Shown here: positions 20,423-38,046 of the stretch, piece after piece
Numbering within the stretch: the stretch's first letter is position 1
Layout of the letters: every line of letters begins with the position of its first letter
Assembly (NCBI RefSeq): GCF_017873415.1
Contig: NZ_JAGGKD010000001.1
Coordinates: 403,973 to 443,972, forward strand
Direction: 5' to 3'
DNA from: Methanolobus bombayensis
GTDB taxonomy: Archaea > Halobacteriota > Methanosarcinia > Methanosarcinales > Methanosarcinaceae
DNA: 40,000 nt
Program-made: the position numbers and the translations under genes
The notes under the pieces: model-generated
Seen by the model: only the letters and a program-made list of their open reading frames with translations
Databases searched by the model: none
What the model was told of the DNA's origin: nothing

Positions 20423-20507
20423 GCGGGGGTTGCCCAGCTTGGCCAAAGGCGATGGGCTTAGGACCCATTCTCGTAGGAGTCCGTGAGTTCGAATCTCACC
20501 TCCCGCA
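20423..20507 (+). tRNA. tRNA-Leu (anticodon UAG), long variable arm, no encoded CCA; casposon integration target
   Basis: The sequence is GCGGGGGTTGCCCAGCTTGGCCAAAGGCGATGGGCTTAGGACCCATTCTCGTAGGAGTCCGTGAGTTCGAATCTCACCTCCCGCA. The anticodon stem ATGGG pairs with CCCAT and the loop is CT-TAG-GA. The T-arm is GTGAG-TTCGAAT-CTCAC and the acceptor GCGGGGG pairs with CTCCCGC. Confidence 0.85.
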
Positions 20508-20517
20508 TCATTTACCT
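20504..20517. repeat. Target-site duplication copy 1 (CGCATCATTTACCT)
   Basis: This 14-mer is identical to those at 29500-29513 and 38033-38046. It covers the last 4 nt of tRNA-Leu plus 10 nt downstream. The shared string is 16 nt if the two preceding C residues are counted. Confidence 0.85.
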
Positions 20518-20556
20518 GGGATATATACAAGGCGAAAAAAGTGTACGCTTTTGCAA
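20518..20556. repeat. Casposon 1 left terminal inverted repeat
   Basis: GGGATATATACAAGGCGAAAAAAGTGTACGCTTTTGCAA matches the reverse complement of 29461-29499 (GGGATATATACAAGGCGAAAAAAGTGTACGCTTTTGTAA) with one mismatch. Confidence 0.9.
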
Positions 20557-20730
20557 GCATCCCACATAACTATATTATAGAGTTATCAAAGAAAATATTT
20601 TATTTGCATAAATCAGAAGTACAACTCACAGTTTTCTAATATATTCATCTGCTTCGAAATACAATAATTCCACATATGACAAATACAGAAGGAATAAGTC
20701 TATAAATTTAAATACTTCTCAAGCAATTCT

Positions 20731-21366
20731 TTGATGAATAAAATGTTTAATATCAAAAAGGTTACTTCACATATCTTTAATGCAGTAATTCAGGGTTTAA
20801 TATTTGGACTTACTGGGACAATATTAATTTTTGCAATAATATTCATAGCTATTTCACTGTTTCCTACACTCAAAATGTTTGTGCCCTTTACTACTGAAAA
20901 CATGGAGTTATTAAATGTTTCTCTTACGGTTGTTTTTGTATTTGTAACTAGTATTTACGTTTATTTTACATATCAAATTGTGGAACAGTCTTCTATTGAT
21001 CGAAAGATTTCTTTTACTGAAAAAAAACTTGTAAACTTCTATTACCCATTAGAAGATTTCATGAAATTTTCTGTCAAAGCCGTGGGAGATGAACCAAATG
21101 AAAGAGAATTGAGGCGAGATTCAGGTCTTGACACGGTAGAAAAAAGAAATTCCAATCCTATTTATCGAGATATTGTAAAAAACAAATATCTTGCTGACAA
21201 TGAAACCAGAGCCATTTTAGATTCTTTTTTAGACATTTTATCACAGAACAGCAGGTCAAAAAAACCCGAGCATTTATCTGTTTATGATAATTTAAACGCT
21301 TTAGTAAGTTTGAAAATAAAATCTTCACTTGAAGAACTCAATTCATTACTAAATGAGAAAAAATAA
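20731..21366 (+). CDS. Hypothetical membrane-anchored protein (casposon 1 left-arm cargo)
   Basis: The 211-aa product has two N-terminal TM segments and then a charged helical domain. It has no counterpart in casposon 2. The track start is TTG 20731, with an ATG at 20734. Confidence 0.5.
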   Translation: MMNKMFNIKKVTSHIFNAVIQGLIFGLTGTILIFAIIFIAISLFPTLKMFVPFTTENMELLNVSLTVVFVFVTSIYVYFTYQIVEQSSIDRKISFTEKKLVNFYYPLEDFMKFSVKAVGDEPNERELRRDSGLDTVEKRNSNPIYRDIVKNKYLADNETRAILDSFLDILSQNSRSKKPEHLSVYDNLNALVSLKIKSSLEELNSLLNEKK

Positions 21367-21446
21367 TTTCTACACTTAAAGTTAAAGGGGTAATTAGCTC
21401 ATACTTTATTTGTCAAACAATACTTGCAATTATTTTCAAATTACCT

Positions 21447-22649
21447 TTAATATCCATCCCACATCTCCAATCTTTCCTTAACATGAGCATTCACACTAAA
21501 CGGTTTATCCCCTTTTGCATTCTTCTTCATGTAGTGTAATGTACCCTTAGAGAATCCCATTTTCTTCCATTCGGTATAGCCAATAGCAAGAATCTTCTTT
21601 CTAAGAATATCAGTGTCATCCCTCTTCCCAACATAAGCAGGCTTACTAAAATCAATCATTTTTCTATTACCTGTGAGATGTTGAGCTAATTCTCTACCTT
21701 TCAACAACAGGACACTACCCCAAGTAGTATTCTTTTTCCTGTACTCAACTTTACCATTCATCACAGAATTAAACTCAGCAGTGAGCTTCTTTGCTCCTGA
21801 AGGCTTTAGCCTAAGTGAATAACTCTCTGTCCTGATGAAGTCCTTATCCTCCATTGCTTCTTTTTCAATAAGATTAACAACCGCAAGATCAACAAGGAAT
21901 CTAAAAGGCTCTTGGAAATCATAAGCTAAACTATGCTTGCTTGGATTCATTTCATGCAAAAAACCAACACGTGAATCAAGACCTACTGAATTAATAATTC
22001 GTAAACATTCAGATTCAAGTAAAGAATATCCATAATTGAGCATAACATTGGTTTTATCTCCTGCTCCCATTGGACGCCTGTACTTGTCAATTCTTGCTTT
22101 AAAATCATATTCAATAGGAATGACTTTGTTAAACTCATTCCAATACTTCCAAGCAATACCGCCTTCAATACCCATTAATTCCCTGATGGATTTTACATTT
22201 TTGATTTTTCCTTTATCGGTGGTAAAATCATAATCAACTTCGGAGTATCTTTGTTTAAGATAATCAAGCACAGCTTCAGATTTAGATATTTTAGCTTCAA
22301 TGAATTTCTTAGCTATCTTTAATCTAGTTTCCTCATTCTCAAAAGCGTGATATTGAGCAAACTTAATCTTTACATTTGCACTTTCAGGTGGAAGCATTGT
22401 TGTCAATAATTTGCCATCCCAATTAAGTATGGTAACCTGTACATTGTGTTTAACAAGCCATCTAATAGCCTCAATACTGATGTTGCCACTTTTACCATAA
22501 ATTACAATGCTGTCAATATCCATTCTTTTGGGTGAGAATGTGTATTTTTCAGGCTCTTCATTTGCGGAAAATCTGCCATCCTTGACATGTAGTTTAGCAT
22601 TGCTGACACGCATGTCTATTCCATGACCATTTAGTAAGAGCATCTTCAT
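21447..22649 (-). CDS. cas1: Cas1-family integrase (casposase)
   Basis: The 400-aa product starts MKMLLLNGHGIDMRV. Its Cas1 catalytic-region motifs are MGIEGG and VGFLHEMNPSKHSLAYDFQEPFRFLVD, and it has a C-terminal HTH (GFSKGTLHYMKKNA). No cas2 or cas4 lies adjacent. The start overlaps the stop of the upstream wHTH gene (TAATG). Confidence 0.9.
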   Translation of the reverse strand: MKMLLLNGHGIDMRVSNAKLHVKDGRFSANEEPEKYTFSPKRMDIDSIVIYGKSGNISIEAIRWLVKHNVQVTILNWDGKLLTTMLPPESANVKIKFAQYHAFENEETRLKIAKKFIEAKISKSEAVLDYLKQRYSEVDYDFTTDKGKIKNVKSIRELMGIEGGIAWKYWNEFNKVIPIEYDFKARIDKYRRPMGAGDKTNVMLNYGYSLLESECLRIINSVGLDSRVGFLHEMNPSKHSLAYDFQEPFRFLVDLAVVNLIEKEAMEDKDFIRTESYSLRLKPSGAKKLTAEFNSVMNGKVEYRKKNTTWGSVLLLKGRELAQHLTGNRKMIDFSKPAYVGKRDDTDILRKKILAIGYTEWKKMGFSKGTLHYMKKNAKGDKPFSVNAHVKERLEMWDGY

Positions 22650-23521
22650 TAGAATTTCTCCACAGCATCCTTATTCTCTTTAAAATGATCGTCATGCATT
22701 CCAAGATGAGTCATAGCTATGACTCTTACTTGAGCAATGAACTGAGCAGGCTCTTCTTTGCCCTCTAATCTTAACTTTTCCTCAAAATCATAGAGTTCTT
22801 CCCTGTGATCCTCTATTACAAAGGCTGTATAGTTAGAATTATAATCAAGAAGGTCATGAAGGTTGTCTAACTCTTCAGCATCCTTTTTTAGTCTGTCAAT
22901 AATAGCACTATCGTTATAGTATCCTAGTAAAAAGATAAAATGAGTTCTAAGGTTCTTGTGTCCATGTGGTAATGGCTTAGGGTACTTATTCAATAGGCTT
23001 CTAAGCATCTTAATAGCTTCTTGTCTGTTATAGGGTTCTATATCCTTTTTATCTATGTATGTATAGACTATTCTTAGGATATTGTCTATAAGGTCTATGT
23101 CTTCTGTGTCTAATTGGGCTATAAGTATGTCTAATTGGAGAGGATTGAGTAGACAGTGTTTCTCATATCTTTCCAGTTCTTTAAGTGCCATTTTTTGTAT
23201 TATAGGATTATTAGTGGATATTTTACCTATAATCGTATCTATATGTCTTCTTATTTCTTCTGTTTTTTTAAGAGTAAAAAAGCTAGCTCTACCATCCTCT
23301 ACTCTTATTCCTGCTTTTTTAAGAGTATCGCCTTTAAGCTTAGATACTATACCTCTATCCACCATACTGTCAAGCTTTCGATTGATACTCTTGTCACTAT
23401 ATCCACTATCCCCTCTATGCTTATTTTTGAGGGTTTGTATGAGTTGCGACCTTCTAACATAGCCTTGATTGGATAATATTCGTCTGACTTCTTGGTCAAA
23501 GTCTAACCCTTTTTTATACAT
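22649..23521 (-). CDS. Winged-helix DNA-binding protein with a helical-repeat C-terminal domain (casposon core gene)
   Basis: The 290-aa product has an N-terminal wHTH-like region (VRRSQLIQTL...SINRKLDSMVDRGIVSKL). It is collinear with the gene at 31762-32634 in casposon 2 and translationally coupled to cas1. Confidence 0.7.
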   Translation of the reverse strand: MYKKGLDFDQEVRRILSNQGYVRRSQLIQTLKNKHRGDSGYSDKSINRKLDSMVDRGIVSKLKGDTLKKAGIRVEDGRASFFTLKKTEEIRRHIDTIIGKISTNNPIIQKMALKELERYEKHCLLNPLQLDILIAQLDTEDIDLIDNILRIVYTYIDKKDIEPYNRQEAIKMLRSLLNKYPKPLPHGHKNLRTHFIFLLGYYNDSAIIDRLKKDAEELDNLHDLLDYNSNYTAFVIEDHREELYDFEEKLRLEGKEEPAQFIAQVRVIAMTHLGMHDDHFKENKDAVEKF

Positions 23522-23627
23522 ACTTATACCCTAGTTGATATAAGAACTATATCATATTTATACCTAATCTTATACTCACTTTCTGTACAGATATGATGAG
23601 GTACATAGTGTTTTATTGTGACTTATT
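23522..23627. promoter_or_regulatory. Divergent control region of the casposon 1 core (between the wHTH-cas1 operon and the RHH-polB operon)
   Basis: This 106-bp AT-rich intergenic region has TATA-like elements (tatatcatatttatacc). About 93% of its first ~88 nt are identical to the equivalent region of casposon 2 (32635-32723), a higher identity than I see in the flanking coding sequence. Confidence 0.5.
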
Positions 23628-23768
23628 ATGTCCGGTAAAGCAAGAATGATAGTTAGCCTTTCTTCTTACCTTAAGGAGAAAGTGGAATCGTACTCTGAGA
23701 AATATGGCTGTTCTCAAGCTGAAGTGGTGAGAATGGCTCTTATAAGGTATCTGGAGGATGAAGAATGA
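23628..23768 (+). CDS. Ribbon-helix-helix (CopG/MetJ-like) small DNA-binding protein
   Basis: Absent from the track (46 aa). My translation is MSGKARMIVSLSSYLKEKVESYSEKYGCSQAEVVRMALIRYLEDEE, which has the beta-strand, helix, helix pattern of RHH proteins. Its stop overlaps the next start (ATGA). Confidence 0.7.
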   Translation: MSGKARMIVSLSSYLKEKVESYSEKYGCSQAEVVRMALIRYLEDEE

Positions 23769-24409
23769 GCAGACCTGAATTTACCAGAGAATACAGGACT
23801 TATGGAGAATGGCTCAAAGCAATGCCAAGAGATACGAGGTATGCAAAGGAGATCATCAGGAAACACCAGATGTTTCCAGATAAGAGCCTGAATCAATTGA
23901 GAAAATTGAAACTATCTGATGCATCTCTTGCATCTAGGTCATTTGATGCATTATCACCCGTACAGCGAGATATGAGAAAAAGAGCTGTTCTTGCAGTAAA
24001 TGACATGAGAAAGGGTAAATCCCTTACCACAGCGGCAAAAGAGCAGGGAATCAGTGTACAGGACGCTCTCAAGCATCTTGGAAATGCAGTGTATAAGAAA
24101 AATGGACGTTGGGTTGCTACAAAGAGCGATGCCATTGAAAGAGGCAGATGGTTCTATTCTAACGGTAAAAGAGTTAGTGTTGTTGTCAAAAATTCAAAGG
24201 ATGCATCACTTGTCAGTAAGTATCTGAATGCTGTCAGGACTGCATTAAGGACAGGAGATGAAGCAGCACTCAAGCCATTCAAGAATGTTACAATAGAGGG
24301 TGCTGATGGGAAGGATTACCCACTTGAGACAGACCTTGAGAAGCTGTATGAGGCAAATGAACAAATCGAGGACTCTGAGTTCTTGCCAATATACGATGAT
24401 AGGAACTAA
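23765..24409 (+). CDS. Conserved casposon protein of unknown function (possible HTH)
   Basis: The 214-aa product is collinear with the gene at 32874-33512. Both start MSRP.F.REYRTYGEW.KA and end ETDL.KLYE..E.IE..EF. It contains an HTH-like segment, SLTTAAKEQGISVQDALKHLG. Confidence 0.6.
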   Translation: MSRPEFTREYRTYGEWLKAMPRDTRYAKEIIRKHQMFPDKSLNQLRKLKLSDASLASRSFDALSPVQRDMRKRAVLAVNDMRKGKSLTTAAKEQGISVQDALKHLGNAVYKKNGRWVATKSDAIERGRWFYSNGKRVSVVVKNSKDASLVSKYLNAVRTALRTGDEAALKPFKNVTIEGADGKDYPLETDLEKLYEANEQIEDSEFLPIYDDRN

Positions 24410-24437
24410 ACAACCTTAATTCAAGCAGGGGATAGGT

Positions 24438-24794
24438 TTGTCCAACGAAGATTTTATTTTGCAGATAAAACAGCAAGCTAAGAGCGAACAGCTTGTTAAA
24501 AATGGTATCTGCGAAATTTGTGGAGAGACTAATCCCTATGCTTTGAAAATCTACGAGAATCATCACATTTCCACAAGAGGCTTTTCGGATGAAACAAGAG
24601 TGCTTTGTCTGAACTGTCATGCTGCTGTAACTCATTTTCAAAATGAACTCCCTCCTAAGTTTAGATCAAGCCAATTACCGCTAGAGGAGAGACTTGACTA
24701 TGTTCTGCTTACACATGCGGCACTCAGGAAAAGAATGGATGAGATTGAGATTGATTTGTTAAGAAAGAGATATGAGGGAATTAAAAATGAATAA
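24438..24794 (+). CDS. HNH endonuclease
   Basis: The 118-aa product has CEICGE...YENHHIS...LCLNCHAAVT, the HNH/zinc-finger pattern. It uses a TTG start. A homologue sits at the same position in casposon 2. Confidence 0.75.
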   Translation: MSNEDFILQIKQQAKSEQLVKNGICEICGETNPYALKIYENHHISTRGFSDETRVLCLNCHAAVTHFQNELPPKFRSSQLPLEERLDYVLLTHAALRKRMDEIEIDLLRKRYEGIKNE

Positions 24795-27483
24795 TGTTGC
24801 ATTGAGGACATTCTCAACAAAAGAGGAAGAGATGAAGAAACAATTTCCTTACACGTATAAACAAGAGATACCTGATTTTTCCAGAGTCTTGACATTCGAT
24901 ACTGAAACAACAGCAGATGAGTTCCTTAACCTGAAGTTTGGCTCGTTCATGGTACATGAGAATGACGTGTATCAATATGCAGGCTTGTTCTGGGATGACA
25001 GACATGTATCAAAAAAAGAGTATAAAGTGCTGAAAGCGTATGCAGAGAAGTACAACATACGCTTATTCTCTCTTGAAGAGTTTATCAAGATATTTTATTT
25101 GGAAATCTACGAAAGAAAAACGCTCTGTATTGGTTATAACATCAACTTCGACCTGTCACGGATAATTTTAGATTATGGGCATGGCAGGTATTCAGGCAAG
25201 GATGGATTCTCCTTCAAACTAACTGAAGATACAACCTATCCACGTCTTCGCATCAAGCACCTGACAGGCAGATCATACAACGTTGAGTTTACAAGAGCAA
25301 AGGGTAAGTACAGGAAAGAGAGGACGTTCAAAGGTCATTTTCTGGATGTAGCCAATCTTGCATGTACATTGACCGACAATAAATCTCTCACACTTGAGAA
25401 GGCTTGTGAGATATTTGATACTCCAATAAAGAAGAAATCAATAAGCAAACATGGAGTAATAACTCCAAACTATATTGATTACAACATTACAGACGTAAGA
25501 TCAACTTATGAGCTATTCAAAAAAGTAAGCCAGGAGTATGAAAGGTATCAGTTGGCGATTCCAATGACTGATATTTACTCTGCTGCTTCTCTTGGAAAGC
25601 AGGCACTTAATCAGTTCAACATTGCACCTTTTATGCAGCATAATAATGATTTTCCTCCTGAACTTATCGGTAATCAGATGAGTGGATACTATGGAGGAAG
25701 ATGTGAGTGCAAGATAAGGAGAACACCTACTAAGGTTACAGTTCTGGATTTCTTCAGTATGTACCCAACTGTAACCCTCCTTCTTGGTCTTTGGGATTTT
25801 GTGATTGCAGATAAAATCCATCATGTTGATGACACAGAGAACGTCAGGCAATTTATTGAAGAATTTACGTTTGAGGATGCTCTTAACCGTGATATTTGGG
25901 AGAAGCTAAACGTTCTTGTTGAAATAGAGCCTGATGATGATATTCTACCTGTTAGAACAAAGTATGCAGGAGAGGATGGAACGTTAAACATCGGTATTAA
26001 TCACATAACAATGAATGAATCGTTGTATTACTTCTTGCCTGACATTCTTGCCTCAAAGCTGCTTACAGGTAAAACTCCCAAGATAAAGAGAGCTATCAGG
26101 TTTATTCCTGAAGGCATACAGGAAAGTCTCACAGAATCAGAAGTCTATGGAGTTCATGTGAATCCAAAAGAGGATAATCTCATCAAAGTTCTCGTTGAAC
26201 GTAGGCAGGAGATTAAGAATGAGATGAAGAAGGTATCAAAGGACTCTCATGACTATGATGTTCTGGATGCACAACAGAGAGCCTTGAAGATTCTTAATAA
26301 TTCCACAACATACGGGATTTATATTGAGATGCATCCAAAGGAAGAGGAAAAACTGAGAGTATTTAGCAACGTTGAGTTTGATTCTAAAGGAAAATATGAA
26401 CAGCCTGGGAAATACTTCAATGCCATCATAGGAGCAAATATTACAGCAGGAGCAAGGCTATTGCTTGCTATTGCAGAGAAGTTTGTGATGGATAAAGGTG
26501 AGGTTCATGCATACATGGATACAGATTCTATTTTTGTTCCTCCGCATCTTGCAGACGAATTGAGTCATCTTTTTGATTCTCTGAATCCTTATGATTTTGA
26601 TAAGCCAATCCTTGAGATTGAGGACGGAATGGAAGACATTTGGTTCTATGGTATCAGTTCCAAGAGATATTGTTTGTTCAGGGAAGAAGGAAATAAGATC
26701 ATCATTCCTGAAGGAAAGAAGCTGTTCTATAAACTGCATGGATTAGGACACATAACAAATCCATTCAAAAGGGAATTGGAGGAAGGAGACCAATGGCACA
26801 AGAAGTTATGGGAGGATATTCTCAGAGTCCATTTTCATCCTGAAGAGCTTCCTGATGTGTTGGAGAAATATGAGAACTATGCTGTAATTTCTAAACTTGC
26901 AGTTTCAACAGGAACAATATTGAGACGATTTGAGAGAATGAACGAAGGGAAGCCATTTGATAAACAAATCAAGCCTTTCAACTTCATGCTTGTTGGGAGT
27001 GGTGCAACAATCAATGAGGATGGGGAGAAGGTCAAGCCTGTTGCTCCTTACAACAATAATCCACAAGTTGCTATTGAGAATGAGTTCATAGACTACAATA
27101 CAGGAGATACGCTTCAAGGAAGGGAATACTGGAAGCCATTAAGTGATGTATTCCTTGATTACATAAATCATCCTGAAGCTAAATTTGAAGGAGATATAGG
27201 AGTACTGCAAAGGAGACATCTTACTCCTACTGGGTGCGTGTATATTGGTAAGGAAGCAAATAAGGTTGAAATGCAGGAATTAGAGAGCAATGAAGTTGAG
27301 ATATACCACGATATAGAGAAGATAAGGGAATTTGTTCTAGGTTTAAAGCCTGATAAAGCTAAAGAGATTGGAATTGAGCATAGGAGCGCATTAAAGCAAT
27401 TGAAGGATAGGGTAAGAGAAGGAGACTTTAATATGAATACTAAATTGATGAGGATGGTAATAGGAAAAATTTATAGTAGATAA
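24772..27483 (+). CDS. polB: Family B DNA polymerase (casposon PolB)
   Basis: The exonuclease motifs are ExoI FDTETT, ExoII YNINFDLSRI and ExoIII YNITDV. The polymerase motifs are A LDFFSMYPT, B KILNNSTTYG, C YMDTDSIF and KxY SSKRY. By homology with the casposon 2 copy, the likely true start is ATG 24787 (MNNVALR...). Confidence 0.9.
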   Translation: MRELKMNNVALRTFSTKEEEMKKQFPYTYKQEIPDFSRVLTFDTETTADEFLNLKFGSFMVHENDVYQYAGLFWDDRHVSKKEYKVLKAYAEKYNIRLFSLEEFIKIFYLEIYERKTLCIGYNINFDLSRIILDYGHGRYSGKDGFSFKLTEDTTYPRLRIKHLTGRSYNVEFTRAKGKYRKERTFKGHFLDVANLACTLTDNKSLTLEKACEIFDTPIKKKSISKHGVITPNYIDYNITDVRSTYELFKKVSQEYERYQLAIPMTDIYSAASLGKQALNQFNIAPFMQHNNDFPPELIGNQMSGYYGGRCECKIRRTPTKVTVLDFFSMYPTVTLLLGLWDFVIADKIHHVDDTENVRQFIEEFTFEDALNRDIWEKLNVLVEIEPDDDILPVRTKYAGEDGTLNIGINHITMNESLYYFLPDILASKLLTGKTPKIKRAIRFIPEGIQESLTESEVYGVHVNPKEDNLIKVLVERRQEIKNEMKKVSKDSHDYDVLDAQQRALKILNNSTTYGIYIEMHPKEEEKLRVFSNVEFDSKGKYEQPGKYFNAIIGANITAGARLLLAIAEKFVMDKGEVHAYMDTDSIFVPPHLADELSHLFDSLNPYDFDKPILEIEDGMEDIWFYGISSKRYCLFREEGNKIIIPEGKKLFYKLHGLGHITNPFKRELEEGDQWHKKLWEDILRVHFHPEELPDVLEKYENYAVISKLAVSTGTILRRFERMNEGKPFDKQIKPFNFMLVGSGATINEDGEKVKPVAPYNNNPQVAIENEFIDYNTGDTLQGREYWKPLSDVFLDYINHPEAKFEGDIGVLQRRHLTPTGCVYIGKEANKVEMQELESNEVEIYHDIEKIREFVLGLKPDKAKEIGIEHRSALKQLKDRVREGDFNMNTKLMRMVIGKIYSR

Positions 27484-27500
27484 AATCTTTAAAAAGAGTT

Positions 27501-28388
27501 GTGACTGGTAAATCTATCAAGGAAATAATTGAAGATCATAAAAAAATCATGTCTTCTCTAAACATCAATAAAACTCTAAATAACTTAAGTAGTTCATTTA
27601 TTCTACCTTCTTCTTTCAATAATGGTAGGCAAAAGTCTTTAAAAAAAGTAATAACCGAGATAAATGAATATGAAAAAGCTGGTAACAACTATTCTGACGA
27701 AATTTGCCACACATGTAATAAAAAAATAAATAGTCATCTATTTTACTCTTTAAGAAAATATGAAGAGGTACAATTAGATGATGATTTGGAATATAGAGTA
27801 GAGGATCAATTAGAAGACAAACTAATTGAATGTAATGATTTTTGTTCAGGCTCTTGCCTTGAAGCATTTTCTGACAAACATGAAGAGACAATTGAGGAAT
27901 ATGAACTATATGAGGTCAGAAGATGTTCTTGTTATTATGACTGTCTTGATCTTGAAAACATAAGAGGGATTTGTGAAAGAGAAGAACGTTTAGATTATGA
28001 ATCTAACCTTTTCCCATCACTTCCATTACATAATTTTTGTGAACCAGCTGACGCAGGCATAATCAAAGCATCAATAAATATTAAAAAGCAATTAGACGAA
28101 GGATCAAAGCAAAATTCAGATCATTTTAAGATAACAGCAGTAATGACTATATTAGTAATATTGTTAACTATCGCCAATATTTTCCTTGTAATTGATACAA
28201 ATTATGAACATCAGCTAGATAGTATAGATGCAAAACTTGGTGCGATTAACAACAGTCTCTCATCTCTTAATAATCAAGCCAATGACATTAATTCTGAACT
28301 AGATCCAAGCACTCTTTTAGTCAGTAGTAATTTAGAAAACTCTCTAGATAATACCAATAAGACAGTTGAATTCTCAAATAAAAGTTGA
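27501..28388 (+). CDS. Hypothetical Cys-rich protein with a C-terminal TM segment (casposon 1 right-arm cargo)
   Basis: The 295-aa product uses a GTG start. It has several Cys clusters (CHTCNKK, CNDFCSGSC, CSCYYDC), one TM segment (ITAVMTILVILLTIANIFLVI) and an N/S-rich tail. It has no counterpart in casposon 2. Confidence 0.5.
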   Translation: MTGKSIKEIIEDHKKIMSSLNINKTLNNLSSSFILPSSFNNGRQKSLKKVITEINEYEKAGNNYSDEICHTCNKKINSHLFYSLRKYEEVQLDDDLEYRVEDQLEDKLIECNDFCSGSCLEAFSDKHEETIEEYELYEVRRCSCYYDCLDLENIRGICEREERLDYESNLFPSLPLHNFCEPADAGIIKASINIKKQLDEGSKQNSDHFKITAVMTILVILLTIANIFLVIDTNYEHQLDSIDAKLGAINNSLSSLNNQANDINSELDPSTLLVSSNLENSLDNTNKTVEFSNKS

Positions 28389-28399
28389 AATATTCAAAT

Positions 28400-29669: not shown

Positions 29670-30551
29670 ATGGTTAATGACAATCCTAATATTTTTTACA
29701 AATATCGAAGTGTTAATGAAAATACAATTAAAATGCTAGAAAACCAGGAATTGTATTTTAGTGGTGCTTCAGATTTCAATGATCCTTTTGATTCAAAAGC
29801 TGACTTGATTTGGAGGGGCAATAAAGATGATTGGATGAGCTTTTTATATAGAATGGGTATTAAGAACCATGCACAACGCGAACAATCCATCAAAGAAAAC
29901 CTTAAAAATGGGTCTTTAAGAAATAGAAAAGGAGAATATTTATTAGACCCAAATAGAACTGCTTTTAAGGTACTTAAAGGGAATATTCAACTTAATAATA
30001 AACCTGATTTTCCGAGAGCTTGTTGTTTTAGCGAAGACAACGATAGTATCTTAATGTGGAGTCACTATGCAGATGAGCATAAAGGAATATGCTTATGCTT
30101 TAAATCTAAAATAATAGAGACGGGAGATTTTTTATATTTAGATTCTAATCCTGATCCCTACCTACTTTTTCCAATAACATATCAAGAAGACATGCCTGAA
30201 CAAGTAAACATGTTGAGCAGTTATGAACCTGAAGAATTGGTATCTTTTTTATGCACCAAACATTTTGATTGGAAGTATGAAAAAGAGCGTCGTTTGATAA
30301 TGTGGCCTATTGATTTCAATACTCATGGGCAATATACTAAAAAATTTAGAAAAGAAGATTTAGAAGGAATTATTTTTGGGTTGAATACCCCTACTGACCA
30401 TATAAAAATGATTAAGACGATTATAGACGAACAATACCTTAAAGAAGGTTTTAAAGTTAATTTCTATAAGGCTCAGGAATTGCAAAAAAAATATGGTATT
30501 TATATTAAGCCAATAGACGATTTAGATAAGCACATAGAAAAATACTGTTAG
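29670..30551 (+). CDS. DUF2971-family protein (casposon 2 left-arm cargo)
   Basis: The 293-aa product has IFYKYRSVNENTIKMLENQELYFSGASDFNDPFDS and CFSEDNDSILMWSHYADEHKGICLCF. Both match the DUF2971 signature as I remember it. Confidence 0.65.
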   Translation: MVNDNPNIFYKYRSVNENTIKMLENQELYFSGASDFNDPFDSKADLIWRGNKDDWMSFLYRMGIKNHAQREQSIKENLKNGSLRNRKGEYLLDPNRTAFKVLKGNIQLNNKPDFPRACCFSEDNDSILMWSHYADEHKGICLCFKSKIIETGDFLYLDSNPDPYLLFPITYQEDMPEQVNMLSSYEPEELVSFLCTKHFDWKYEKERRLIMWPIDFNTHGQYTKKFRKEDLEGIIFGLNTPTDHIKMIKTIIDEQYLKEGFKVNFYKAQELQKKYGIYIKPIDDLDKHIEKYC

Positions 30552-30559
30552 AAAACACA

Positions 30560-31762
30560 TCAATAATTGTCCCATATCTCCAATCTTTCCCTTACATGAG
30601 AGTTTAGAGTAAATGGCTTATCAGCCTCAGCATTCTTCTTCATGTAATGGAGAGTACCTTTTGAGAAACCCATTTTCTTCCAGTCAGAATATGATATGCT
30701 CAATATCTTTTGCCTAATATCATCTGAATCCTGTCTTTCAACACTATAAGCAGGCTTACTGAAATCAAGTGTTTTCCTTTTCCCAACAAGATACTGAGCA
30801 AGCTCCCTAGTTTTCAACAATAAGGCATAACTCCACATAACAGACTGCTTCTTGTATGGAACTTTTTTGTTCATCCAGTTATTGAACTCTTCAGTCACCT
30901 TCTTAGCTCCTGAAGGTTTAAGCCTAAGTGAATAGCTCTCAGTCCTGATAAAGTCTGTATTATCCATCTTCTTGGACTCAATAAGACTGATTACAGCCAT
31001 ATCAACAAGGAATCTGAAAGGCTCTTGAAGATCATAAGCTAGACTGTTCTTACTTGGATTCATCTCATGTAAAAAACCTACATGAGCATCAAGACCTGCT
31101 GTATTAATTGCTCTTAGGCATTCAGCTTCAAGCAAAGCATATCCATAATTAAGCATGACATTAACTTTGTCTCCTGCTCCTGTTGCTCTCCTGTATTGGT
31201 CTATCCTTGAACAGAAATCATATTCTTCTGGAATAGCTTTGTTAAACTCGTTCCAGTATTTCCAAGCAACTCCGCCTTCAATCCCCATTATTTCCCTAAT
31301 GTTTTTAGCAGATTTTAGTTTTTCAATATCCTCTGAGAAATCATAATCTATTGCAGGATACCTTTGCTTCAGATAATCCATAACTACAATGGATTTATCA
31401 AACTTTGCTTCAATGAACTTCCTTGCTATCTTGATTCTGCTTTCTTCATCCTCAAAAGCATGATACTGAACAAACTTAGTCTTAACATTGGTAGTTTCAG
31501 GAGGTTGTAAGGTACTTAGAATTTTACCGTTCCAATCAAGGAAAGTAACCTGAACATTGTGTTTAATCAACCATCTGACAGCATCAAGAGTCAGATTTCC
31601 ATTCCTGCCATAAACAATGATGTGGTCTATATCCATCCGCTTTGGAGAGTAAACATACTCTTCAGGTTCTTCAGTAGATGAAGTTCTGCCATTCTTGATA
31701 TGCAGTTTAGCACCACTAACACGCATATCTATTCCATGACCATTGAGAAGAAGCATTTTCAT
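30560..31762 (-). CDS. cas1: Cas1-family integrase (casposase)
   Basis: The 400-aa product is collinear with, and clearly homologous to, the gene at 21447-22649. It carries the same motifs (MGIEGG, VGFLHEMNPSKNSLAYDLQEPFRFLVD, C-terminal GFSKGTLHYMKKNA). Confidence 0.9.
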   Translation of the reverse strand: MKMLLLNGHGIDMRVSGAKLHIKNGRTSSTEEPEEYVYSPKRMDIDHIIVYGRNGNLTLDAVRWLIKHNVQVTFLDWNGKILSTLQPPETTNVKTKFVQYHAFEDEESRIKIARKFIEAKFDKSIVVMDYLKQRYPAIDYDFSEDIEKLKSAKNIREIMGIEGGVAWKYWNEFNKAIPEEYDFCSRIDQYRRATGAGDKVNVMLNYGYALLEAECLRAINTAGLDAHVGFLHEMNPSKNSLAYDLQEPFRFLVDMAVISLIESKKMDNTDFIRTESYSLRLKPSGAKKVTEEFNNWMNKKVPYKKQSVMWSYALLLKTRELAQYLVGKRKTLDFSKPAYSVERQDSDDIRQKILSISYSDWKKMGFSKGTLHYMKKNAEADKPFTLNSHVRERLEIWDNY

Positions 31763-32634
31763 TAAAATCCCTCCACATCAGCATTATTCTGAACAAAAGG
31801 ATCATCATACATTCCAAGATGAATCATGGCTCTAACTCTTACCTGAGAAATGAACTGAGCAGACTCTTCTTTTCCCTCTAGTCTTAATTTTTCCTCAAAT
31901 TCATAGAGGTCTTCCCTATGTTCCTCTATTACATGTGCTGTATAGTTAGAGTCATAATCTTCCATTTCATGAAGGTTATCTAATTCCTCTGAATCCTTTT
32001 TTAGCCAATCAATAACAGCACTATCATTGTAGTGTCCTAGTAAATAGATAAAATGAGTTCTAAGGTTCTTATGTCTATGAGGTAATGGCTTAGGATATTT
32101 AGACAATAAACCTCTAAGCATCTTAATAGCTTCTGGTTTGTTATAGGGTTCTATATTCTTTATGTCTATATAGGTATAGACTATTCTTAGGATATGGTCT
32201 ATAAGGTCTATATCCTCTGTGTCTAGTTGGGCTATAAGTATGTCTAATTGACTAGGGTTAAGAGTATATCGTTTCTTATATTTTTCAAGCTCTTTAAGAG
32301 CCATTTTTTGTATAATAGGATTATTCGAGGCTATTTTTCCTATAATCGTATCTATATGTCTCTTTATTTCCTCTGTTTTTTTAAGAGTAAAAAAGCTAGC
32401 TCTACCATCCTCTACTCTTATCCCTGCTTTTTTAAGAGCATCCCCTTTAAGTTTAATCACTATGCCCCTTTTTACCATACTGTCTAACTTTCGATTGATA
32501 CTCTTCTCACTATAACCACTATCTTTTTTGTGTCTGTTTTTTAGAGTTAGTATGAGTTGTGCTCTTCTAACATACCCTTGTTTTGATAATATGTCTTTAA
32601 CCTCTAGGTCAAAATTTAACCCTTTTTTATACAT
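31762..32634 (-). CDS. Winged-helix DNA-binding protein with a helical-repeat C-terminal domain (casposon core gene)
   Basis: The 290-aa product is a homologue of the gene at 22649-23521. Its stop overlaps the cas1 start. Confidence 0.7.
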   Translation of the reverse strand: MYKKGLNFDLEVKDILSKQGYVRRAQLILTLKNRHKKDSGYSEKSINRKLDSMVKRGIVIKLKGDALKKAGIRVEDGRASFFTLKKTEEIKRHIDTIIGKIASNNPIIQKMALKELEKYKKRYTLNPSQLDILIAQLDTEDIDLIDHILRIVYTYIDIKNIEPYNKPEAIKMLRGLLSKYPKPLPHRHKNLRTHFIYLLGHYNDSAVIDWLKKDSEELDNLHEMEDYDSNYTAHVIEEHREDLYEFEEKLRLEGKEESAQFISQVRVRAMIHLGMYDDPFVQNNADVEGF

Positions 32635-32736
32635 AATTATACCCTACTTGATATAAGAAATATATCATATTTATACCTAATCTTATACTCAGTTTCTGTA
32701 CAGGTATGATGAGTTACATAGTGTATTTTGACTAAC
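32635..32736. promoter_or_regulatory. Divergent control region of the casposon 2 core
   Basis: This is the counterpart of 23522-23627 and is nearly identical in sequence, including the TATA-like tatatcatatttatacc. Confidence 0.5.
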
Positions 32737-32877
32737 ATGACTCACAAAGAAAGACTTGTAATAAGCCTTTCTTCTTACCTTAAGGAGAAAGTGGAATCGT
32801 ACTCTGAGAAATATGGCTGTTCTCAAGCTGAAGTAGTGAGAATTGCTCTCATACGGTATCTGGAGGATGCAGCATGA
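32737..32877 (+). CDS. Ribbon-helix-helix small DNA-binding protein
   Basis: Absent from the track (46 aa). My translation is MTHKERLVISLSSYLKEKVESYSEKYGCSQAEVVRIALIRYLEDAA. Its stop overlaps the next start. Confidence 0.7.
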   Translation: MTHKERLVISLSSYLKEKVESYSEKYGCSQAEVVRIALIRYLEDAA

Positions 32878-33512
32878 GCAGACCTCAATTTTCCAGAGAA
32901 TACAGAACTTATGGGGAATGGTTCAAAGCTCAACCCAGGAACACAAAGTATGCAAAAGAGATCATCAGGAAACATAAACTATTTCCAGATAAGAGCCTGA
33001 GCCAACTAAGAAACCTTAGAATAAGTGACTATGACCTGAGCCAAACAGCATGGAAAACTCTCACATCTCAACAGAAGAGAGATAGAAACCTAGCTCTTGA
33101 GGTTTTAAGATCTATTAGAAAGGGCGAATCACTAACTCAGGCTTTGAAGAAAAGAGGACTCAGAAAGGATTTCGTACTCAAAAATCTTGGTAATCAACTT
33201 CAGAAGTCAAAAGGAAAATGGGTTGCAACTAAGACAGACAGCTTAGAAGTTGAAATGTTGGTTTATACAAAAGATGGAGTAAGAACCGTTGTAGCCACAT
33301 CTTCTAAAGACAGGAGCAGGATTGCAAAATACTTCAATGATGTACAGAAGGCATTGAAGAATAATGATTCCTCAATACTTGCCAAATACAAGAGAATGAA
33401 GCTCATTGATGCTGAAGGAAATGAACATCATTTTGAAACAGACCTTGACAAACTGTATGAGATACAGGAAACAATAGAAGAGCCTGAATTTTTGGAGATT
33501 TATCAGAACTGA
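32874..33512 (+). CDS. Conserved casposon protein of unknown function
   Basis: The 212-aa product is a homologue of the gene at 23765-24409. Confidence 0.6.
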   Translation: MSRPQFSREYRTYGEWFKAQPRNTKYAKEIIRKHKLFPDKSLSQLRNLRISDYDLSQTAWKTLTSQQKRDRNLALEVLRSIRKGESLTQALKKRGLRKDFVLKNLGNQLQKSKGKWVATKTDSLEVEMLVYTKDGVRTVVATSSKDRSRIAKYFNDVQKALKNNDSSILAKYKRMKLIDAEGNEHHFETDLDKLYEIQETIEEPEFLEIYQN

Positions 33513-33515
33513 GGA

Positions 33516-33857
33516 GTGGATACTATGAGTAAAGAAACCTATGCAAATACCGTAAAGAGAAGTAAAAAAGGAGAGATACCACACCTTGCATGTGTTGTAT
33601 GTGGGGAAGATGATCCCGATTTGATAGAGATGCATCATGTTGATGGAAGGAATAATTCAGAGTGGAAAAAACCTCTCTGTAAGAATCATCATTTCAAGGT
33701 AACAATGAAGCAAAATAAAGTAAGCCCAAAAGCAAGGTCAAAAGACACTTCTTTGCAGAACCTTAGAGCTTTTAATATAATCTCTATTGGGGCTTTAGTT
33801 GTTGAACTTGGAAACCGCTTGATAAAAGTTGGATATGAGATGGTTGAAAATGTCTGA
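33516..33857 (+). CDS. HNH endonuclease
   Basis: The 113-aa product has CVVCGE...EMHHVDG...LCKNHHFKVT. The track start is GTG 33516, and an ATG at 33525 follows a GGAG. Confidence 0.75.
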   Translation: MDTMSKETYANTVKRSKKGEIPHLACVVCGEDDPDLIEMHHVDGRNNSEWKKPLCKNHHFKVTMKQNKVSPKARSKDTSLQNLRAFNIISIGALVVELGNRLIKVGYEMVENV

Positions 33858-36510
33858 TAAGCTAGCACTTAGGGTTTATACACAGAAGGCAGGTAAGAAA
33901 AAAACCACGCCTTCTACTTTTAAAGAAGACCTCATCCTTCATCATAGAAGGGTATTAGTCTTTGATACTGAAACTACAACAGATCAATACCAAAACATGA
34001 AGATAGGTTTCTTTCAAATCTATCAGGATGGAGGAATACAGCATGAAGGGTTATTTTATGATCCTTCTATGCTTGATGAAGAGGAAACTGAGGTCTTTAA
34101 GGAATATTCTCTCAAGAATGACATTTCTCTTTACACTCTTGAAGAGTTTGTTGATGATGTATTTTATCCAGAGGTCTTGGGTTTCAAAGCTCTTTGTGTA
34201 GGATTCAATTTACCATTTGACATAAGCAGGATAGCTAAAAAGGTTGGGGATTCAAGAGGATATAATAAAGGAGGTTTTACTTTTACTCTCTCCGATAAAG
34301 AAGAGAATCCTCAAATTGTCATTAAAAAACTTGGCTCAGCATACAGTTTCAAGTTGAATGGAACAAAGGAGAATCAGGGCAAAAACAGGCATAATGGTTA
34401 TTTTATCGATGCTCAGACGCTTGCTGAGGTTTTACTTCAAAAAAAGCATATTTCCCTTGAAAAAGCCTGCAAGTTCCTCAAAACAAAAACTCAGAAAATA
34501 GAAGGCGTAGAACATGGAAAAGTAACTGACGAGTATATTGATTATCTTATCACGGATGTTCGCGCAACTTGGGAAGTATATGAGAAACTTATAGATGAAT
34601 TAAGGATTTATCAAATCAATATCCCACCTACGAAAATATACAGTAATGCTTCAGTTGGTAAATATGCATTAAAGCAGTTAGGAGTAAAACCTTTCCTTGA
34701 ATTGAATCCTGATTTCTCTCCTGTATTGCTTGGAAACATCATGTCTTCTTATTATGGAGGGAGATGCGAATGCAAGATAAGAAAAGTACCTACTAAGGTT
34801 ACAGTCCTTGATTTTACAAGCATGTATCCAACGGTTACAATGCTTCTTGATCTCTGGAAGTTCATTATTGCTGAAAGTATTGAAACAAAGGATGTAACAG
34901 AGAAAATTAAAGAGTTACTTTCAAACATAAACCTTGAGTTCTTTCAAAATAAGGATAATTGGAAGGACTTTGTTGTAATGGTTAAGTTACATCCAGATGA
35001 GGACATTTTGCCTGTAAGGAAGAATTACAAGGGAGATGGAAGTGCGTATAATGTGGGTGTCAATAATCTGACATCTGACTTTGAACTATGGTATGCTTTA
35101 CCTGATGTTATAAGCTCAGTTCTTTTAACTGGAAAAGTACCTGAGATTGTGGAAGCTGTTAAATTTATTCCAGTAGGCATTCAGGAAGGTTTGAAGGAAA
35201 CAGAGATTCTTGGAATTAAGATTAATCCTAGAAAGGAGAACTTAGTTCAGGTTCTTGTTGAGGAAAGACAAAAGATAAAACAGGAATTAGAGACTTTAAA
35301 TAAAGAGCACCCTGATTATCAGCACCTTAAGAGCAGGGCACAGGCTATTAAGATTCTAGTTAACTCAATGAGTTATGGAATCTTTATTGAACTGAATCCA
35401 GAGGATAAGAAAAGCACTATTGAAGTACATGGGTTAGATAGTTTTGAAACAACAGATAACAAGTATGAGAAAGAAGGAAAATATTTCCATCCTCTGCTTG
35501 CTTCAATGATTACGTCGGGTTCAAGATTATTCTTAGCTATGGCTGAAGCTAAAGTAAAGGAACTTGGTTCTGTTCATGCTTACATGGATACTGATAGTAT
35601 TTTTGTCATTCCAGAACATGCTCAGGAAGTTGTTGATTATTTCAACAAGCTAAATCCTTACAATCCTGAACTTGATATTCCTCTTTTAAAGAAAGAAGAC
35701 GGGAAAGAAGATGTGTGGTTCTATGGTATCTCTTCAAAGCGTTATGTTCTTTACAGGATTATTGATGGGAAGTTTGAGCTAGTAGATTACAAGTTGCATG
35801 GTCTTGGTCATTTAACAAACCCATTTTCAAATAAAGATGATTGGCAACAGGAAATATGGTTAGATATTCTTATGGTACGTTATGGAATTGTAAAACCTGA
35901 AGACATTGAGCTTAAGTATTCTACTATGTATGCAATTTCTAGGCTTACTGTCAGTACTCCTAATGTTCTGCATAGGTTTGATAAGTTAAATGAAGGAAAG
36001 GAGTGGAAAGAGATGATAAAACCTTTTAATTTCTTCCTTGTTGGCTTCCAGACAAAAGAAGAGAACAATAAAGCTGTCAAGCCTTTAGCTCCTTTTACAA
36101 AGGACTATCAGAGGATAGTCTATGAGTATTTCATAGATTATGAAACAGGAGAGAGGAAAAAAGGAGTACATTATTTTAAGCCATTGAGTAGGACAATATC
36201 TCAGTATGCAGAGCATCCAGAACATAAATTTGAAGGAGGCATAGGAGTATTGGAAAGAAAACACGTTCATGCTAAGGATACTATTGAGATAGGAAAGGAA
36301 GCTAACAGCATAGATGAGCAGTCTCTTGGAGTCAAGAAAGCACAGGAATTCAGGAATAAGGAGAAGATCATGCAGAAAATACTCAATATTTCTGTATCTG
36401 AAGCTAAGGAATTAGGAGTTCCTAAGACTACATTATGGGATATGCAGAAAAGGATAAGGGAAACAGGAAAATTGAATTTGGGTACTCCTGCTGTGAGGAA
36501 GATGATATGA
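33829..36510 (+). CDS. polB: Family B DNA polymerase (casposon PolB)
   Basis: The exonuclease motifs are ExoI FDTETT, ExoII FNLPFDISRI and ExoIII YLITDV. The polymerase motifs are A LDFTSMYPT, B KILVNSMSYG, C YMDTDSIF and KxY SSKRY. The likely true start is ATG 33850 (MSDKLALR...). Confidence 0.9.
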   Translation: MDMRWLKMSDKLALRVYTQKAGKKKTTPSTFKEDLILHHRRVLVFDTETTTDQYQNMKIGFFQIYQDGGIQHEGLFYDPSMLDEEETEVFKEYSLKNDISLYTLEEFVDDVFYPEVLGFKALCVGFNLPFDISRIAKKVGDSRGYNKGGFTFTLSDKEENPQIVIKKLGSAYSFKLNGTKENQGKNRHNGYFIDAQTLAEVLLQKKHISLEKACKFLKTKTQKIEGVEHGKVTDEYIDYLITDVRATWEVYEKLIDELRIYQINIPPTKIYSNASVGKYALKQLGVKPFLELNPDFSPVLLGNIMSSYYGGRCECKIRKVPTKVTVLDFTSMYPTVTMLLDLWKFIIAESIETKDVTEKIKELLSNINLEFFQNKDNWKDFVVMVKLHPDEDILPVRKNYKGDGSAYNVGVNNLTSDFELWYALPDVISSVLLTGKVPEIVEAVKFIPVGIQEGLKETEILGIKINPRKENLVQVLVEERQKIKQELETLNKEHPDYQHLKSRAQAIKILVNSMSYGIFIELNPEDKKSTIEVHGLDSFETTDNKYEKEGKYFHPLLASMITSGSRLFLAMAEAKVKELGSVHAYMDTDSIFVIPEHAQEVVDYFNKLNPYNPELDIPLLKKEDGKEDVWFYGISSKRYVLYRIIDGKFELVDYKLHGLGHLTNPFSNKDDWQQEIWLDILMVRYGIVKPEDIELKYSTMYAISRLTVSTPNVLHRFDKLNEGKEWKEMIKPFNFFLVGFQTKEENNKAVKPLAPFTKDYQRIVYEYFIDYETGERKKGVHYFKPLSRTISQYAEHPEHKFEGGIGVLERKHVHAKDTIEIGKEANSIDEQSLGVKKAQEFRNKEKIMQKILNISVSEAKELGVPKTTLWDMQKRIRETGKLNLGTPAVRKMI

Positions 36511-36522
36511 GTTGTTTTGTTG

Positions 36523-37833
36523 CTAAATAATAACTCTGGATTTTAGTAAATATGTTCGGGCTCCATTTGAAACAGCTTGTTCTCTGCTTACTAATTTTTT
36601 GTCAACCAAAGATATTACAATTCTTGAACATTTACGTGAGTCAACCTCAAGCTTCTTCCAAAGTTGATTTTGATAAATATCATCTTCTGCGATGATTATT
36701 TCTAACGCAACCCTCTCTAATTGTGTTAAACCTTTTTTATCAGATGGTGTTAAAATAGGTTTTACAGGAATGTTTCCCACTTTGACTAGAAGATTAGCAT
36801 ATAAGTCAATTAATTCCTGACAAAAGTTATAACTTATGGGAAGAACACCTACCATTTCACCCTTCTTTGCGTCATTCCAAGCAAAACCCTCAATTCCAAT
36901 ATTAAAATTTAAACCTGCAACTAGCTGTTCATCTGAGTTTTTTATACTAATCTGTTGGTTATCATGTAAGTCTTCGGTTGCAAGTGCAATAATACAGTCA
37001 TCAAATTGAGATAAGATTTGTTCAGCTGTTTCTTTAAAAAATATATATTCATCCTTGATTTCTTTTTCTTTACTTAAAAAAGCAGACTTTTCTTCAAATA
37101 ATTTTGAATTATAATTAACCAACTGATAAAAATTTTTTAATATTCTTTTTCTACTTGCAAATAATAATTTAATATTTCGAATTTGTTCTTTTTCTTTTTT
37201 TGATTCTTGGAACAGACCATGATATAAACATTTATCTCCTTTCGATAAACAAGATTTTTCAAAATATCTTGCAACAAACCTTTCTGCACTCTCTTTTGAT
37301 TGTCCTGTTAGTTGAACAAGAGCATTAATTCCACCTTCTTTATATACTGCATACCTTTCTGCTTCTAGTCTTTCTTGTTCTTGTATTTCCTTTCCTACAT
37401 TCTCTTTTAAAATCTTGATGTGCTCTTTTCTTTCTTTTTCTTCCCAACTAAGTTTTTCAATATTTGTGTATGTATTATTTAAGTAATTATGAACAAAATA
37501 TTGAAGACTAGCTGTGTTTTTTCCTGTTAATTTAGTAAGAGCCTGAATACCCCACATTTCATAAATTCTAATTTTTTCATAATTATAAAAAAGGATATTT
37601 CCGTTTACAAAACGTGACATAAAATTTACATCTGATTTACATGCTTTACAAAACCATTTATTCCTTTCTCCCAAAAATTCCACAGATGGTTTAAAGCAAT
37701 ACGGACAAACAATTGATGTTTTCTTAACAAGTGATTCGGTTTCATCAATTTTAAAAACTTCATGTCTAAATTGATTAATTTCCTTTATTGTATATTTTGT
37801 ATCATTTTCGGTTTTTTCCATCAGCTCACCCAA
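36523..37833 (-). CDS. Hypothetical protein with an N-terminal zinc ribbon, an internal duplicated motif and a C-terminal wHTH (casposon 2 right-arm cargo)
   Basis: The 436-aa product has CPYCF...CKACKS. An internal motif is duplicated (GIQALTKLTGKNTASLQYFVHNY and GINALVQLTGQSKESAERFVARYF). The C-terminus has a MarR-like wHTH (NQLWKKLEVDSRKCSRIVISLVDKKLVSRE). It has no counterpart in casposon 1. Confidence 0.55.
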   Translation of the reverse strand: MGELMEKTENDTKYTIKEINQFRHEVFKIDETESLVKKTSIVCPYCFKPSVEFLGERNKWFCKACKSDVNFMSRFVNGNILFYNYEKIRIYEMWGIQALTKLTGKNTASLQYFVHNYLNNTYTNIEKLSWEEKERKEHIKILKENVGKEIQEQERLEAERYAVYKEGGINALVQLTGQSKESAERFVARYFEKSCLSKGDKCLYHGLFQESKKEKEQIRNIKLLFASRKRILKNFYQLVNYNSKLFEEKSAFLSKEKEIKDEYIFFKETAEQILSQFDDCIIALATEDLHDNQQISIKNSDEQLVAGLNFNIGIEGFAWNDAKKGEMVGVLPISYNFCQELIDLYANLLVKVGNIPVKPILTPSDKKGLTQLERVALEIIIAEDDIYQNQLWKKLEVDSRKCSRIVISLVDKKLVSREQAVSNGARTYLLKSRVII

Positions 37834-38002
37834 AAACCATAATCTTGCAATAACAAAACTTCATTATAACATAAATATTACGGAATAAAAAAGAAAACAT
37901 TTTTGAATTTTATTTTAATACTCGTATTATATATGTCATAATATTATTATTAGGAGTTCCGTTTTTCTCAAATTGACAGGAAAAATTAGAGTTTTTTATG
38001 GA

Positions 38003-38032
38003 AGTTCGGTTTTTTGGGCTTACCTATTACCC
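38003..38032. repeat. Casposon 2 right terminal inverted repeat
   Basis: agttcggttttttgggcttacctattaccc is the reverse complement of the left TIR with 2 mismatches. Confidence 0.85.
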
Positions 38033-38046
38033 CGCATCATTTACCT
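38033..38046. repeat. Target-site duplication copy 3 (CGCATCATTTACCT)
   Basis: This copy is identical to copies 1 and 2. It is followed by the presumed original tRNA-Leu downstream flank (ttcaagttccc...). Confidence 0.85.

Follow-up and report, generated by a model that had tools for sequence, protein, structure and literature searches.

In a 40,000-nucleotide stretch of the Methanolobus bombayensis genome (contig NZ_JAGGKD010000001.1, positions 403,973 to 443,972, hereafter the window), the region downstream of a tRNA-Leu(UAG) gene is occupied by two neighbouring segments, E1 and E2, with the layout of family-2 casposons. Each is bounded by its own terminal inverted repeats (TIRs) and encodes a Cas1 protein, a family B DNA polymerase (PolB) and a putative HNH nuclease, and copies of a duplicated 14-bp target site (target site duplication, TSD) stand on either side of and between them. 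A CRISPR array begins shortly beyond the second segment. The features of the region are given below with coordinates in the window and strand; open reading frames (ORFs) are given by length in amino acids (aa).

20423-20507, plus: tRNA-Leu(UAG), integration target (ARAGORN, Rfam RF00005, sequence)
20504-20517, plus: TSD copy 1, CGCATCATTTACCT, tRNA-proximal (exact match)
20518-29499: casposon E1, 8982 bp, E1-type lineage; TIRs 20518-20556 and 29461-29499 (38/39)
20731-21366, plus: E1 cargo ORF, 211 aa, hydrophobic N-terminus, no family match
21447-22649, minus: predicted E1 casposase (Cas1 with C-terminal helix-turn-helix, HTH), 400 aa; E162, R191, R192, H232 and E247 present
22649-23521, minus: putative E1 HTH-HEAT protein, 290 aa, family-2 core gene; weak HEAT_2 match, 81% identical to the E2 copy
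23628-23768, plus: putative E1 ribbon-helix-helix (RHH) protein, 46 aa; weak DUF6290/RHH matches
23765-24409, plus: E1 conserved protein, 214 aa, in all related casposons
24438-24794, plus: putative E1 HNH-type nuclease, 118 aa; invariant columns, weak profile matches to HNH domains
24772-27483, plus: E1 PolB, 903 aa, with intact Exo I-III and Pol A/B/C motifs
27501-29340: E1 cargo, a 295-aa ORF (plus) and membrane-type ORFs of 131 aa and 136 aa (minus), no family match
29500-29513, plus: TSD copy 2, CGCATCATTTACCT, common to E1 and E2 (exact match)
29514-38032: casposon E2, 8519 bp, E2-type lineage, mosaic; TIRs 29514-29543 and 38003-38032 (28/30)
29670-30551, plus: E2 cargo, DUF2971 protein, 293 aa (Pfam E=3e-6; PADLOC PDC-S31 E=2e-52)
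30560-31762, minus: predicted E2 casposase, 400 aa, catalytic residues intact
31762-32877: putative E2 HTH-HEAT gene (minus) and RHH gene (plus), recombinant module of E1-type origin
32874-33857, plus: E2 conserved protein (212 aa) and putative HNH nuclease (113 aa)
33829-36510, plus: E2 PolB, 893 aa, all motifs intact
36523-37833, minus: E2 cargo, 436-aa protein, weak C-terminal MarR-like winged HTH (wHTH)
38033-38046, plus: TSD copy 3, CGCATCATTTACCT, distal (exact match)
38047-38361: native host flank, 94.8% identical to the empty-site flank of scaffold L016; degenerate terminal repeat and oldest spacer within
38362-40000, minus: CRISPR array, context and not part of the casposons (Rfam CRISPR-DR7); trailer end faces the casposons

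The two elements lie head-to-tail (E1, 20518-29499; E2, 29514-38032), and their TIR pairs are the two longest inverted repeats of the region, both abutting copies of CGCATCATTTACCT. The E1 pair spans 52 nt (20518-20569 and 29448-29499, 87% identity), with 38 of the outermost 39 nt matching, and the E2 pair spans 30 nt (29514-29543 and 38003-38032), of which 28 match. A first-pass annotation of this DNA, made from the sequence alone, had proposed two segments of 8982 and 8519 bp with TIRs matching at 38/39 and 28/30 positions, and both the coordinates and the inverted repeats were confirmed. It had also described three identical copies of the 14-mer, the first overlapping the last 4 nt of tRNA-Leu. 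Indeed, exactly three copies occur, starting at 20504, 29500 and 38033, and with up to 2 mismatches allowed none of 100 shuffles gave three or more matches. The tRNA gene was placed at 20422-20509 by ARAGORN and at 20423-20507 by Rfam (RF00005, 46.3 bits), and its last 4 nt (CGC plus the discriminator A) are the first 4 nt of TSD copy 1. A 14-bp TSD that starts with CGCA at the end of tRNA-Leu is the signature of Methanosarcina family-2 casposons (PMC4779613, PMC6977970), and the TSD found here has the length (14 bp), the 5'-CGCA start and the position at the tRNA 3' end of a Methanosarcinaceae family-2 casposon. The Methanosarcina mazei sites tLEU1 CGCATCAAATTTCT and tLEU2 CGCACTTATTTTTT (PMC10359463) resemble two Methanolobus targets, tLEU1 being close to CGCATCATTTACCT.

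Both 400-aa ORFs match PF01867 in profile search (E about 1e-69) and contain the Cas1 catalytic-region motif to which the first-pass annotation had drawn attention. Residues 1-398 of the E1 protein align ungapped with the structure of the M. mazei casposase (6OPM) at 614 bits, compared with 130 bits for the best CRISPR Cas1 structure in the PDB. The type I-B Cas1 of the orthologous locus in Methanolobus vulcani is 28% identical to the E1 protein, has 322 aa rather than 400 and is without the C-terminal HTH. Both casposon proteins pass the generic NCBIfam cas1 model and fall below every subtype cutoff, e.g. 150 bits against 304 for I-B. In the M. mazei casposase the active site consists of E162, H232 and E247, R191/R192 contact the target, and the C-terminal HTH, the region beyond residue 341, is essential (PMC6977970). 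Both E1 and E2 have these five residues at matching positions, and the alignment to residue 398 spans the HTH extension (about 60-70 residues). Judged by these similarities, the Cas1 proteins of both elements are of the casposase (Cas1-solo) type and not CRISPR-subtype Cas1.

The core genes share order and orientation between E1 and E2, as had been noted at first pass, and both polymerases match PF00136 and PF03175 with complete Exo I/II/III and Pol A/B/C motifs, which bears out the earlier description of a full motif set. The smaller proteins are more tentatively named. The putative HNH nuclease possesses the columns C25, C28, H42, H43, C57, N59 and H61 (CxxC...HH...CxNxH), invariant across seven casposons, and has weak HNH-domain matches among PDB profiles (E about 0.1). 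HEAT_2 matches of the HTH-HEAT proteins, whose gene is named HTH-h in PMC4779613, lie below the Pfam cutoff, and the gene positions agree with published maps (PMC4779613). The RHH label comes from sub-threshold matches and gene position, and for the 214-aa conserved protein a PDB profile search gave no meaningful match. None of the E1 or E2 ORFs matched Cas2 or Cas4 families, nor did any match tyrosine integrase families. An integrative element of the tyrosine-recombinase kind at a tRNA, pipolins included, was considered and rejected: there is no integrase match, and TIRs and a short TSD are present. The architecture proposed at first pass, that of family-2 casposons, therefore stands, with Cas1 plus HTH, PolB, a putative HNH nuclease, TIRs and a 14-bp CGCA TSD at tRNA-Leu in both elements.

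If the block is an insertion, related genomes should retain the uninterrupted target, which the first-pass annotation had predicted as tRNA-Leu, a single CGCATCATTTACCT and then the sequence that now follows E2. Exactly this arrangement was found on the ENA metagenome scaffold L016, which was reached via protein look-ups and reads tRNA-Leu(UAG), one CGCATCATTTACCT and then TTCAAGTTCCCTGAATG. At the outer junctions L016 agrees with the window in 60/60 bases on the left side of the TSD and in 100/100 on its right side, and overall the two are 94.8% identical over 368 bp, into the CRISPR array. Relative to L016 the insertion measures 17,529 bp, that is 8982 + 14 + 8519 + 14, and with an exact empty site the 17,529-bp block is hence inserted DNA, the product of two integrations at a single target. 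A single-copy target 3' of the tRNA is also present in two JGI contigs (L013/L014, exact) and in M. vulcani B1d (L012, 1 mismatch); two scans of JGI metagenome contigs, one with the tRNA 3' end plus TSD and one with the tRNA 3' portion alone, gave no match. We are highly confident that M. bombayensis carries two distinct family-2 casposons which integrated successively into one chromosomal target.

The same gene order and orientation, and the TSD common to both copies, would also be expected if a single resident casposon had given rise to the pair, through tandem duplication or through unequal recombination. The degree of divergence speaks against this. Amino-acid identity between E1 and E2 is 70% for Cas1, 45% for PolB and 30% for the HNH protein, DNA similarity is limited to about 2.4 kb, and the TIRs are identical at 19/30 positions, differing at 11/30. 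Furthermore, neither copy is the nearest relative of the other, both having closer ones in other genomes, the E2 casposase being 92-93% identical to the casposases of two E2-type elements elsewhere (the proximal element of locus L003 and that of L006) and 70% identical to that of E1. This divergence pattern effectively refutes a duplication.

When reference genomes were scanned, both lineages turned up at further Methanolobus loci. At locus L003 (490-19845) of a Methanolobus metagenome-assembled genome (MAG), an E2-type element, an E1-type element and an E2-type remnant (~3.4 kb, with truncated cas1) are piled up at tRNA-Leu(UAA), divided by copies of the TSD CGCACTTTGTTTTC and in a lineage order opposite to that of the window. 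L006, from the same MAG, is an intact E2-type element at a non-tRNA site, beyond which (L006 13254-15600) lie an E1-like TIR and a PolB fragment. In L004 the element at tRNA-Leu(UAA) is of E1 type and oppositely oriented. These arrangements bear on whether the 17.5-kb block could move as one composite element via the outer TIRs of E1 and E2. Composite transposons are common among other transposon classes, and the outer ends have a terminal GGG and an A-rich core in common (19/30 identical). However, the internal TSD copy is the exact prediction of two separate integrations, L003 shows the opposite lineage order plus a third remnant, and the lineages also occur singly (L004, L006), hence we regard joint movement as very unlikely.

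Comparison with these relatives shows that E2 is a mosaic. Its cas1 and the block from the 212-aa gene through HNH to polB have 84-89% DNA identity to E2-type elements, whereas the HTH-HEAT plus RHH segment is missing from the E2-type elements of L003 (proximal) and L006 and has 79-82% DNA identity to E1-type elements. The E2 RHH protein has 96% identity to its E1-type counterpart, compared with 50-51% for E2-type copies. On these identities, the HTH-HEAT-RHH module (about 31762-32877) is of E1-type origin. Since the module is missing from the L003-proximal and L006 elements, these E2-type elements lack a gene listed as family-2 core.

The casposases of M. mazei family-2 casposons in tRNA-Leu (e.g. 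MetMaz1FA1A3-C2) are about 70-75% identical to those described here over their full length, including the HTH, and by this analogy integration would proceed as follows. A casposase tetramer would bind the 3' ends of the TIRs and recognise about 30 bp of the tRNA-Leu 3' region together with the CGCA motif. The two element ends would be joined to opposite strands at points 14 bp apart, and repair of the gaps would leave CGCATCATTTACCT as a 14-bp duplication. Copying of the element is presumed to be the task of its own PolB, and HNH, HTH-HEAT and RHH are conserved genes with putative accessory or regulatory roles. Target rules and tandem formation in M. mazei are experimentally established (PMC6977970, PMC10359463, PMC4779613): the casposase requires about 30 bp of upstream tRNA sequence (PMC6977970), and in 2023 a mini-casposon was reported to enter the left TSD of the resident MetMaz-C1 in vivo (PMC10359463). 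After a first integration only the tRNA-proximal TSD copy keeps the upstream tRNA determinant, so the second element would have entered there, making E1 the later arrival and E2 the earlier. By this analogy E1 most likely arrived after E2.

Some points weigh against the reading of E1 and E2 as successive family-2 integrants. The HNH, RHH and HTH-HEAT labels come from weak matches and motifs, the arrival order is taken from M. mazei biochemistry, and the nearest elements in other genomes share only about 84-89% DNA identity with E1 and E2. Furthermore, the casposases were placed by pairwise and profile similarity, with the M. mazei casposase and CRISPR Cas1 proteins as references.

Both elements are apparently intact, and their sequences suggest that they could still be mobile today. 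A more cautious interpretation is that both are real casposons which have lost their mobility and are now fixed fossils of the species. Exact-protein look-ups with the casposases led to no data set other than an assembly from reads of this genome, DNA divergence from the nearest relatives elsewhere is 11-16%, and the right TIR of E2 has 2 mismatches. Against this, every core ORF is full length and the catalytic residues are intact, the three TSD copies are still identical and the E1 TIRs match at 38/39. Decay in other genomes takes quite another form, with a truncated cas1 and a solo TIR. We consider fixation as fossils possible, if somewhat doubtful.

As the first-pass annotation recognised, the element class is already described, and tandem examples have been published (PMC4779613, PMC10359463, PMC9939771). 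M. mazei casposons share with E1 and E2 the catalytic and target-binding residues, the gene set of Cas1, PolB and the putative HTH-HEAT and HNH genes, and the 14-bp CGCA TSD over the last 4 nt of tRNA-Leu, but differ in host genus, TIR sequences and cargo, which in E1 and E2 comprises the DUF2971/PDC-S31 protein, the 436-aa wHTH protein and small membrane proteins. Natural tandem insertions have been reported for no M. mazei strain (PMC4779613). They are known from Methanosarcina sp. 2.H.T.1A.3/6/8/15 at the tRNA-Leu 3' end and from 2.H.A.1B.4 at an intergenic site (Krupovic et al. 2016, PMC4779613). The tRNA-Leu tandems of the 2.H.T.1A strains consist of closely related copies, one of them dead (PolB with stop codons), whereas the M. 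bombayensis pair belongs to clearly different lineages, both members look intact, and the site borders a CRISPR array. The mini-casposon at the left TSD of MetMaz-C1 likewise formed a head-to-tail array by insertion into the resident's TSD copy, but as an engineered mini-element (PMC10359463), whereas the array described here is natural and made of two autonomous elements. A review also mentions two adjacent casposons in Methanolobus psychrophilus (PMC9939771). Tandem casposons at tRNA-Leu are thus already known, and the M. bombayensis pair provides new, well-defined examples.

The CRISPR array starts at 38362, 316 bp past the right TSD, and contains 22 perfect 37-nt repeats and a 23rd cut by the window end at 40000, i.e. 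at least 23; one spacer is unusually long (43 nt, 38472-38514). A degenerate repeat (23/37 match) lies at 38290-38326. The 37-nt repeat of the array also occurs in the sister species, in M. vulcani B1d, in a 73-repeat array that runs from tRNA-Leu to a leader adjoining cas4-cas2-cas1-cas6b-cas3 (type I-B). The degenerate repeat, the minus orientation given by Rfam and the position of the M. vulcani leader beside cas4 together place the casposons at the trailer end, opposite to the end at which an array normally gains spacers. The degenerate terminal repeat of M. vulcani adjoins the casposon target, of which only the last ~3 nt (CCT) look repeat-derived. That no cas2, cas4 or effector genes lie nearby, as claimed at first pass, holds for genes within the window, but the array itself had been overlooked. 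With an array 316 bp away, the description of the Cas1 proteins as stand-alone has to rest on protein and element evidence, which suffices.

This proximity raises the question of whether the two Cas1 proteins are, or moonlight as, adaptation enzymes of the array, which would make the block a CRISPR-Cas adaptation module of an unusual kind. CRISPR integrases are of the Cas1 family, and no I-B cas1 of M. bombayensis was recognised when the 120 best homologues of the corresponding M. vulcani protein were considered, so that the array may be an orphan. The Cas1-Cas2-Cas4 module of the orthologous I-B locus and the casposons also have the Cas1 superfamily, the integration chemistry and the chromosomal region in common. 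The casposons differ from that module, however, in having no cas2 or cas4 partner, here or elsewhere in the window, in a 14-bp TSD as opposed to a 37-bp repeat, and in a Cas1 gene that lies inside a TIR- and TSD-bounded element which the otherwise identical L016 locus lacks. The protein is casposase-type over its full length, HTH included, and all CRISPR subtype models failed. Furthermore, the casposons sit at the trailer end, and related casposons in L003 and L006 have no CRISPR array nearby. An adaptation role is hence very improbable, and we continue to regard both proteins as casposases of separate mobile elements.

None of 23 M. bombayensis, 72 M. vulcani and 29 L016 spacers targets a casposon. 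The best match, between the spacer at 39135-39169 and E2 polB (34890-34924), covers 17/18 positions in the core and 20/35 overall, and although 0/20 shuffles gave one as good, we judge it a chance match owing to an in-frame stop in the alignment and because it is too weak for interference. Between the CRISPR repeat and the TIRs or TSD there is no resemblance (local alignment scores 4-7). Considering in addition that L016 has the array without casposons and that related casposons elsewhere have no array nearby, the adjacency looks like inherited synteny and not function.

In the short flank between E2 and the array, positions 38213-38249 match a complete 37-nt spacer of M. vulcani B1d at 37/37 (L012 15876-15912, in the leader-proximal part of the array), and the L016 version of the flank matches this spacer at 32/37. 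M. vulcani itself lacks the matched stretch, its tRNA abutting the degenerate repeat. The match could reflect past self-targeting resolved by deletion, or DNA uptake from a related strain. It was also what first led us to suspect that the 316 bp were a mobile-element remnant, a reading we rejected because the stretch is native flank in L016 and contains a 68-aa ORF conserved in relatives; when searched against viral contigs and against phage and plasmid records, the 316-bp stretch gave no match. Over the final 60 nt of the tRNA and over the flank beside the array (20447-20507 and 38047-38400), M. bombayensis and L016 are 95-100% identical. The photolyase flanking the tRNA, in the window 100% identical to the protein known from M. 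bombayensis, is only 77% identical between the two, and in L016 7.3 kb of cohesin-domain genes lie between photolyase and tRNA. A block of the tRNA 3' half and the CRISPR array may have been exchanged horizontally.

A working interaction between the casposons and the type I-B locus at this site is, in our judgement, improbable. It could take the form of minus-strand pre-crRNA read-through into E2, of casposase and CRISPR integration machinery being used for each other, or of the tRNA-Leu 3' half and the array acting as an exchangeable island that carries a casposon landing pad. If such an interaction were true, M. bombayensis would offer a natural, culturable system with two active casposases beside a CRISPR array, and the perfect M. 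vulcani spacer match would be left over from a conflict or an exchange of DNA there.

The CRISPR adaptation module has been proposed to descend from casposons, and in culturable hosts few of these elements have been characterised. Our results leave the current picture of casposons unchanged and add well-defined examples to it. The locus combines two intact casposases, 70% identical, with different TIRs and an identical 14-bp target in a culturable methanogen with a known empty site. This makes it a natural test bed for the co-evolution of casposase and TIR specificity, for cross-mobilisation of ends, and for the question of whether re-use is confined to the tRNA-proximal TSD copy. Module exchange between lineages and recurrent pile-ups extend the observations made in Methanosarcina.

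Among the cargo genes, a PADLOC search gave no match other than that of the E2 DUF2971 protein to the candidate defence family PDC-S31, which could make it a defence gene carried by a casposon. Upstream of the tRNA, an 89-bp stretch at 20239-20327 is 83% identical to 20377-20465 (the tRNA-Leu promoter and the tRNA 5' half), and M. vulcani, M. sediminis and the JGI contigs also have this partial tRNA copy. An old integration at the tRNA may have left it as a scar. Near the start of the window, a 378-aa TnpB gene (1230-2366, plus strand) with OrfB_IS605, a Cas12f1-like TNB domain and an HTH marks an element of the IS200/IS605 type, ~600 bp from tRNA-Glu.

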